Assembly: GCF_044324875.1 (NCBI RefSeq)
Contig: NZ_CP172185.1
Source: Escherichia coli
GTDB taxonomy: Bacteria > Pseudomonadota > Gammaproteobacteria > Enterobacterales > Enterobacteriaceae
Reading direction: 5' to 3' (one strand)
Length of the DNA: 64,000 bases
Shown here: one piece after another, positions 37,911 to 39,297 of the stretch
Layout of the letters: the number at the start of each line of letters is the position of its first letter
Position numbering within the stretch: the stretch's first letter is position 1
Notes under the pieces: generated by a model
Seen by the model: the letters and a program-made list of their open reading frames with translations, nothing else
Databases searched by the model: none
Told to the model about the DNA's origin: nothing
Program-made: the position numbers and the translations under genes

Positions 37911-38822
37911 GTGAGTACATTAGAACAAACAATTGGCAATACGCCTCTGGTGAAGTTGCAGCGAATGGGGCCGAATAACGGCAGTGAAGTCTGGTTGAAA
38001 CTGGAAGGCAATAACCCGGCAGGTTCGGTAAAAGATCGTGCGGCACTTTCGATGATCGTCGAGGCGGAAAAGCGCGGGGAAATTAAACCGGGTGACGTGC
38101 TGATCGAAGCCACCAGTGGTAACACCGGCATTGCGCTGGCAATGATTGCCGCGCTTAAAGGCTATCGCATGAAATTGCTGATGCCCGACAACATGAGCCA
38201 GGAACGTCGTGCGGCGATGCTGGCATACGGTGCGGAACTGATTCTTGTCACCAAAGAGCAGGGCATGGAAGGTGCGCGCGATCTGGCGCTGGAGATGGCG
38301 AATCGTGGTGAAGGAAAGCTGCTCGATCAGTTCAATAATCCCGATAACCCTTACGCCCATTACACCACCACCGGGCCGGAAATCTGGCAGCAAACCGGCG
38401 GGCGCATTACCCATTTTGTCTCCAGCATGGGAACAACCGGCACTATCACCGGCGTTTCACGCTTTATGCGCGAGCAATCCAAACCGGTGACGATTGTCGG
38501 CTTACAGCCGGAAGAGGGCAGTAGCATTCCCGGCATTCGCCGCTGGCCTGCGGAATATCTGCCGGGGATTTTCAACGCTTCGCTGGTGGATGAGGTGCTG
38601 GATATTCATCAGCGAGAAGCGGAAAACACCATGCGCGAACTGGCAGTGCGGGAAGGAATATTCTGTGGCGTCAGCTCCGGCGGCGCGGTTGCTGGAGCAC
38701 TGCGGGTGGCAAAAGCTAACCCTGGTGCGGTGGTGGTAGCGATCATCTGCGATCGTGGCGATCGCTACCTTTCCACCGGGGTGTTTGGGGAAGAGCATTT
38801 TAGTCAGGGGGCGGGGATTTAA
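37911..38822 (+). CDS. cysM: cysteine synthase B
   Basis: Protein from (V)STLEQTIGNTPLVKLQRMGP recognised as CysM (303 aa); GTG start at 37911. Confidence 0.93.
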   Translation: MSTLEQTIGNTPLVKLQRMGPNNGSEVWLKLEGNNPAGSVKDRAALSMIVEAEKRGEIKPGDVLIEATSGNTGIALAMIAALKGYRMKLLMPDNMSQERRAAMLAYGAELILVTKEQGMEGARDLALEMANRGEGKLLDQFNNPDNPYAHYTTTGPEIWQQTGGRITHFVSSMGTTGTITGVSRFMREQSKPVTIVGLQPEEGSSIPGIRRWPAEYLPGIFNASLVDEVLDIHQREAENTMRELAVREGIFCGVSSGGAVAGALRVAKANPGAVVVAIICDRGDRYLSTGVFGEEHFSQGAGI

Positions 38823-38824
38823 GA

Positions 38825-39193
38825 TTATTGCGCAGGCACCGTTTTATCCGTCTGCGCAATTAGCGCATGTAAAAAAGGTTGTGCGTTCTCATCACTCTTA
38901 CCTGGGATCTTCACAATATACGGCTTCCCGGTAATCGATGACGACGAAGCAACCTTATCAATAAACTGCTCGGCAGTGTCAATGCGGTTACGGGTATTGC
39001 CGAGCTTCAGACGCAGGTGGGAAACCGCTTCATCACAGGTGTGTTCATCGCCGTTACGCACAAATATCAAATCCTTTTTCTGTGCTAATCCCTCCAGCAT
39101 GGCGTTGATACGGGCTTCTTCATGGGCAGTTAACTTCGCGTAAACGGGGAGTGTCATTAGCAGCGTAATGGCCAGACAAATGATTTTCTTCAC
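38825..39193 (-). CDS. yfeK: secreted protein YfeK
   Basis: 122 aa with N-terminal signal peptide [19 protein letters not shown]; divergent from pdxK. Confidence 0.8.
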
Positions 39194-39297
39194 TGAATTA
39201 CCTTATCCTTGTTTTGTAATAGCCGATTTGACTGCCAGAATCAGGTAAAGTTTCGGCTGGAATACGATGAGGATCATCGGCAAGGAGAAAAAATTAA

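Follow-up and report, generated by a model that had tools for sequence, protein, structure and literature searches.

The direct abutment of yfeK and cysM in the window, by which we mean the whole stretch of 64,000 nucleotides of E. coli DNA that was analysed (from contig NZ_CP172185.1), is the majority and ordinary state of this junction in the species. K-12, in which a segment carrying yfeS lies between the two genes, represents the minority and is not the reference state at the yfeK/cysM locus. The presence or absence of yfeS is an ordinary accessory-gene polymorphism, already visible in public annotation and essentially known. With regard to its origin, we consider it likely that the empty junction of the window is the older state and that the K-12 cassette is a horizontally acquired insertion, with a single gain followed by homologous recombination via the flanking genes.

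In the window, cysM and yfeK converge (Table 1), and the sequence-only reading, which had placed their stop codons 2 bp apart, is confirmed directly from the letters. Using K-12 proteins as tblastn queries, CysM matches at 37911-38819 (98.4% amino acid identity over 303 aa), YfeK at 38828-39193 (96.7% identity), PdxK at 39298-40146, Crr at 40194-40700, and CysA at 36680-37774; the yfeK product also matches the YfeK profile PF17263 (E = 1.7e-31). The cysM start homologous to that of K-12 is at 37911, and the longest open reading frame begins at 37833. K-12 YfeS gave no match anywhere in the 64-kb window (tblastn, E ≤ 1e-5), and no gene with a WGR domain (PF05406) lies between yfeK and cysM, i.e., the K-12-type yfeK-yfeS-cysM arrangement is absent. 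The window yfeK ends in ...ACG GTG CCT GCG CAA TAA (TVPAQ*, protein end ...TDKTVPAQ*), and the K-12 gene, with 124 aa and an ATG start, ends in ...CCT GCG GAA GGA AAT TAA (TVPAEGN*). The window shares the GTG start codon of yfeK (39191-39193) with E. albertii, and K-12 has ATG at this place.

Table 1. Features of the yfeK/cysM locus in the window and in K-12 MG1655.
Feature	Location	Strand	Description
Window
cysM (cysteine synthase B)	37911..38822	+	303 aa; TAA stop 38820-38822
Spacer "GA" between convergent stops	38823..38824		2 bp; read from sequence
yfeK (DUF5329/YfeK family)	38825..39193	-	122 aa; stop codon 38825-38827, plus-strand "tta"
Empty insertion site	38827..38831		cassette position in K-12-type genomes; breakpoint in last yfeK codons
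Inverted repeat	38827..38860		11-bp stem, 12-nt loop (AUUGCGCAGGC...GUCUGCGCAAU); fold prediction
σE-type promoter-like site GAAACTT-N16-TCAAA	39227..39254	-	upstream of yfeK
pdxK	39298..40149	+	divergent neighbour of yfeK, as in K-12
MG1655
yfeK	2537342-2537716	+	RefSeq annotation
yfeS	2537749-2538483	+	244 aa; "PF05406 family protein", RefSeq annotation
yfeS-cysM spacer			188 bp; REP/BIME
cysM	2538672-2539583	-	RefSeq annotation

The same reading had placed, in K-12, a gene of roughly 240 aa named yfeS between yfeK and cysM. This is accurate: the MG1655 annotation has yfeS (b2420) at this place, and K-12 itself does not have a direct yfeK-cysM junction. The flanking genes of the MG1655 arrangement (b2419-b2421) and their orientation are like those of the window; the differences are the presence of a 961-bp segment with yfeS and a BIME and a yfeK of 124 instead of 122 aa. 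Within this segment, yfeS has the same direction as yfeK, starts 32 bp downstream of it behind an AGGAGG ribosome-binding site of its own, and is convergent with cysM. In the pairwise BLAST alignment of the window with K-12, both flanks are continuous, and 961 K-12 bases (L001 4706-5666, corresponding to NC_000913.3 2537705-2538665) stand opposite three unaligned window bases (38828-38830). The left breakpoint of the cassette falls in the last yfeK codons and the right one 3 bp before the cysM stop. The junction thus reads ...CCTGCG-CAATAATC-TTAAATCC in the window and ...CCTGCG-GAAGGAAATTAATCC...(yfeS, BIME)...ATTAATCC-TTAAATCC in K-12, so that between the empty and the occupied state 8 bp (CAATAATC) are replaced and not merely interrupted, the yfeK product ending in Q* and EGN*, respectively. 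Besides yfeS, the cassette contains two REP palindromes that form the BIME (inverted repeats I1 and I2), and this REP part (query positions 806-952) recurs at 11-56 places per E. coli genome. Each cassette end coincides exactly with a copy of the 8-bp direct repeat ATTAATCC, the two copies being 952 bp apart; the empty site has a similar heptamer, AATAATC, once. No integrase or transposase gene is present in the cassette, and no tRNA gene is closer than 16 kb.

The distribution of both states was determined in 5,426 complete RefSeq E. coli genomes, a set in which laboratory K-12 and B derivatives are over-represented. As query for the direct junction, we used 200 bp centred on the window junction, of which at least 80% had to be covered in one place; pieces up to 600 bp apart are joined in this search, with single pieces in all of the matches listed. 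For the cassette, the 961-bp K-12 segment had to be covered by at least 80%. This presence/absence check across the pan-genome showed the locus to be polymorphic, with the direct junction in 4,038 of the 5,426 genomes (74%) and the yfeS cassette in 1,381 (25%, a figure inflated by the laboratory derivatives). The few remaining genomes, counted for neither state, include rearranged cases. Examples of the direct junction are O157:H7, O103, O111, and O55:H7 strains, and yfeS is carried by K-12, HS, B, and C, among others. In the RefSeq annotation of yfeS-free E. coli (O157:H7, O103, and strain MEW), cysM and yfeK are adjacent, as in the window, and the junction of MEW, CCTGCGCAATAATCTTA, is identical to that of the window. 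Given that cassette-free genomes match only the REP portion of the query, yfeS has not been relocated elsewhere in them. In strain LR-03, yfeS is split by an IS1; the search joins the two pieces, so this genome is probably one of the 1,381. Truncated forms of YfeS are found in Shigella flexneri and in O9 strains.

The sequence-only reading had left two options for the window, a strain-level absence of yfeS or an insertion in K-12. Both have support and describe one and the same polymorphism, and the cassette is not specific to K-12. Of all matching records of the cassette search, 1,223 have a best match with at least 99% identity to K-12 and a further 174 one with 95-99% identity. A divergent allele is present in EC0026B, where yfeS differs from K-12 by 2.7% and the flanks have diverged equally (yfeK 96.8% and cysM 97.4% identity). 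The existence of two alleles about 2.7% apart, with flanks diverged to the same extent, indicates that the gain is old in the species and not a recent event in K-12.

Other species were covered by an outgroup scan with the window YfeK as query and one genome per GTDB species, resulting in a small sample of 22 loci, with neither Salmonella nor Klebsiella nor the type strain of E. coli among them. Loci without yfeS, in which yfeK and cysM overlap or are at most about 85 bp apart, were found in L003 (a genome labelled E. coli SCPM-O-B-8794 that is only 94.6% identical to the window), Escherichia sp. E1V33, and Pseudocitrobacter faecalis, and with the same spacing in Enterobacteriaceae UBA5654, Superficieibacter sp., Citrobacter amalonaticus, and Entomohabitans. 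The P. faecalis junction, CCTGCGCAATAAACTTA, differs from that of the window by a single base, and this near-identity indicates an empty allele common to both genera. In the same genus, a Pseudocitrobacter metagenome-assembled genome (L006, CAJYVI010000176.1, 5408-6142) carries a K-12-like cassette with both junctions and the BIME alike. Its nucleotide identity to K-12 is 95.9% for yfeS, compared with 80.5% for yfeK and 89.6% for cysM, and its flanks resemble those of P. faecalis at about 90%. In this single metagenome-assembled genome, the cassette is an apparent case of recent cross-genus transfer, or possibly of chimerism in the assembly.

Some species have unrelated cargo at the same place. 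The junction of E. albertii holds, within 1.8 kb of 34.5% GC, two ORFs of 280 and 175 aa in the direction of cysM, that of C. sedlakii two ORFs (628 and 654 aa) on the yfeK strand, the second one with TPR repeats, and that of S. electus an insert of about 0.5 kb with one ORF on the yfeK strand. Pfam searches of this alternative cargo returned weak DKNYY and TPR matches only, and the PADLOC defence models gave no hits for YfeS, YfeK, or the alternative cargo ORFs. The C-terminus of YfeK diverges straight after ...TDKT, with the endings PAQ*, PAEGN*, ELKNK*, LN*, and PDEDK*. Since the cargo differs between species and is unrelated, the yfeK/cysM junction is a small insertion hot spot. As in other genomic islets between convergent core genes, the flanks are conserved, the low-GC cargo varies with the species, and the flanking genes are unharmed. 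Unlike other islet hot spots, this junction has no tRNA, integrase, or recognisable mobility gene, its cargo amounts to only 0.5-3.8 kb, and the insertions reach into the last yfeK codons.

The insertion reading is favoured by the outgroups, by base composition, and by the patchy occurrence of YfeS relatives. The GC content of yfeS is 39.2% (GC3 36.7%), compared with 52-59% for pdxK, cysM, and cysA (cysM 56.5%, GC3 61.8%) and 52.7% for the window. Among 5.8 billion proteins searched, the relatives of YfeS at 89% identity or more are enteric; the next one, at 65%, is a single unassigned metagenome protein, followed at 55-58% by proteins of Paenibacillus, Dysgonomonas, Lysinibacillus, Clostridium, and Bacteroidota. 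The K-12 cassette shows some of the properties by which acquired islets are recognised, namely deviant composition, absence from the orthologous site in relatives, and a patchy phyletic distribution. From this we infer the direction of change and the route: a single horizontal acquisition most likely brought in a foreign cassette of about 0.96 kb, consisting of the low-GC yfeS and a REP/BIME pair, and homologous recombination in the conserved flanking genes would then have spread it between lineages and also across genera. Given the age of the cassette in the species, it is possible that several losses of yfeS account for part of the 74%.

An opposite polarity, in which yfeS is ancestral in E. 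coli and most lineages, including that of the window, lost the cassette through a deletion between the ATTAATCC repeats, appears improbable to us. The exact position of this repeat at the two cassette ends is what such a deletion would start from, the co-divergence of the two alleles with their flanks agrees with an old cassette, and the IS1 insertion in LR-03 and the truncations in Shigella flexneri and O9 strains demonstrate that yfeS can decay. However, the deletion predicts the product …GCGGAAGGAAATTAATCCTTA…, and the window, MEW, L003, and P. faecalis show …GCGCAATAA(T/A)CTTA… instead. Because the empty sites do not carry the predicted GAAGGAAAT...ATTAATCC scar, a simple deletion between the repeats was rejected. 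An ancestral yfeS is also at odds with the seven outgroup taxa that have none and with the foreign composition and patchy distribution of the gene.

The direct repeat at both ends, with the similar heptamer in the empty site, could also be read as a target-site duplication, which would make the cassette an autonomous or mobilisable transposable element, or a former one, that never visited the site in the window; that the REP/BIME of the cassette belongs to a genome-wide family fits with this as well. We regard such an origin as very unlikely, and a transposon was rejected, given that there is no transposase, that the cassette ends have no terminal inverted repeats, and that no genome has a second copy of yfeS, only the REP portion being recurrent. 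Moreover, the left junction alters two yfeK codons, which is unexpected for simple transposition. Finally, there is next to no chance that the abutment of yfeK and cysM is an artefact of assembly or reading: 4,038 independent complete genomes are contiguous at this point, and the two genes are annotated as adjacent in RefSeq, which refutes it. Gain of the cassette at an originally empty junction is the explanation that we consider likely.

Concerning transcription, the region upstream of yfeK was compared with a σE pattern consisting of a -35 element GGAACTT, a 16-nt spacer, and a -10 element TCAAA. The promoter-like motif in the window is identical to that of K-12 base for base, but the window contains matches to this pattern no more often than expected by chance. 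The 107-bp stretch upstream of yfeK has five differences from K-12, one of which is the ATG/GTG start codon. The gene yfeS is one of the K-12 "y-genes"; as a probably acquired accessory gene that is missing from about three-quarters of the complete genomes, it is not to be expected in other strains, nor should it be regarded as a core member of the σE regulon. A study of K-12 reports that yfeK and yfeS are a single operon transcribed from a sigma-24 promoter (PMC11502571). In cassette-bearing strains, yfeS would accordingly be transcribed as the second gene of a σE-driven yfeK operon. Taking this report together with the K-12-identical motif, yfeK of the window would be a σE-type gene that is probably monocistronic, behind a putative σE promoter motif identical to that of K-12.

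The 2-bp gap between the stops of the window leaves no space for a separate terminator, and the terminator scan called no intrinsic terminator at the 2-bp junction. The predicted hairpin listed in Table 1 begins 4 nt past the cysM stop and covers the last ~11 codons of yfeK; it is not followed by a U-tract, and the z-score from folding of the whole fragment was not significant. It may serve as a common RNA 3'-end structure for cysM and yfeK, which is a speculative proposal based on the predicted fold. In K-12, the BIME takes the corresponding place after cysM.

Residues 9-71 of YfeS form a WGR domain (PF05406, E = 6e-18). A confident AlphaFold2 model built with 47 homologues (pLDDT 95.6, pTM 0.92) predicts a WGR domain made of a β-sheet and, C-terminal to it, a helical domain. 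In searches by sequence and by fold, only the WGR part was matched, the hits being 2ra8 of B. fragilis and the WGR domains of PARP1, PARP2, and PARP3, which bind DNA breaks. The genomic neighbourhoods of YfeS homologues were inspected for five proteins, corresponding to seven loci of which six are distinct (L032 repeats L031). In four of the six, the homologue is part of a one-directional array of small genes with Imm10, Imm19, Imm51, SMI1_KNR4/SUKH, Barstar, or Macro domains. Arrays with Imm10, Imm19, Barstar, and Macro are found in L034 and L035, which are unassigned metagenome or read-archive contigs. At L036 (675-8729), likewise an unassigned contig, a one-directional small-gene array lies behind a tyrosine recombinase and an IS91-type transposase, and no gene of this array matches a Pfam immunity family. 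The Dysgonomonas homologue stands alone between genes with tryptophan-biosynthesis Pfam domains.

The layout of the Paenibacillus, Lysinibacillus, and metagenome loci is similar to that of polymorphic-toxin immunity arrays and acquired interbacterial defence clusters. Unlike in these arrays, yfeS of E. coli is solitary, with no adjoining toxin or immunity gene and no PADLOC hit. Since relatives of YfeS reside in immunity-gene arrays, we propose it as a candidate orphan immunity-type protein, and by analogy the neighbourhoods suggest that it might belong to a pool of such orphan genes. A literature search for an immunity role of WGR domains brought up nothing on YfeS in particular, and the sole published phenotype that we found is the boric-acid sensitivity of a ΔyfeS mutant, with partial complementation (PMC11502571). 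A more far-reaching idea, namely that the junction is a cross-genus capture site behind a σE-dependent yfeK promoter with YfeS as an orphan immunity-type protein, is tentative and, in our estimate, rather unlikely to hold as a whole. If true, strains like that of the window would be without an envelope-stress-induced protection against some interbacterial toxin. The variable cargo, the near-identical cassette in another genus, and the relatives in immunity arrays are leads to the function of YfeS, and the window itself is not unusual.

Beyond this locus, the identity of the window to K-12 is uneven, with 98.7% on the pts/pdxK/yfeK side vs 95.7-96.3% on the cys/mur side. Over the 24 kb from 27000 to 51000, the window is at most 98.4% identical to any of the 5,426 complete E. 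coli genomes, so that its own strain is not part of this set. The uneven divergence and the low best match suggest a sparsely sampled lineage, a recombination boundary close to the yfeK/cysM junction, or both.

Several other differences from K-12 were observed along the window. At ~19095-19117, eutA and eutB are adjacent; in K-12, the eut operon is split by the cryptic prophage CPZ-55 (6.8 kb, 2558691-2565480), which the window lacks. Similarly, K-12 IS186C (2514273-2515617) is absent at ~60918-60929 between nupC and pdeA, a junction that in the window has a GC-rich hairpin with a T-run (…AAAAAAACCGGGGAATTATCCCCGGCTTTTTT…). Between yfeW and yfeX (~28194-28220), a K-12 BIME (REP pair, ~156 bp) is missing, as is a K-12 segment of ~128 bp between cysP and ucpA (~33839-33844), which in K-12 has the flanking direct repeats GAACTTGGTTCAA / GAACTTAGTTCAAG. 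The eutH-eutG spacer (16322-16459) could not be aligned with K-12, where two tandem BIMEs are found; the spacer of the window instead has a GC-rich palindromic repeat of another kind (GGGGTGAGGG … CCCTCACCCTAACCCTCTCCCCAAAGGGGCGAGGGG). The tRNA clusters, valU-valX-valY-lysV with its RtT element (RF00391) at 55062-55614 and alaW-alaX at 58313-58503, have the same content and order as in K-12.
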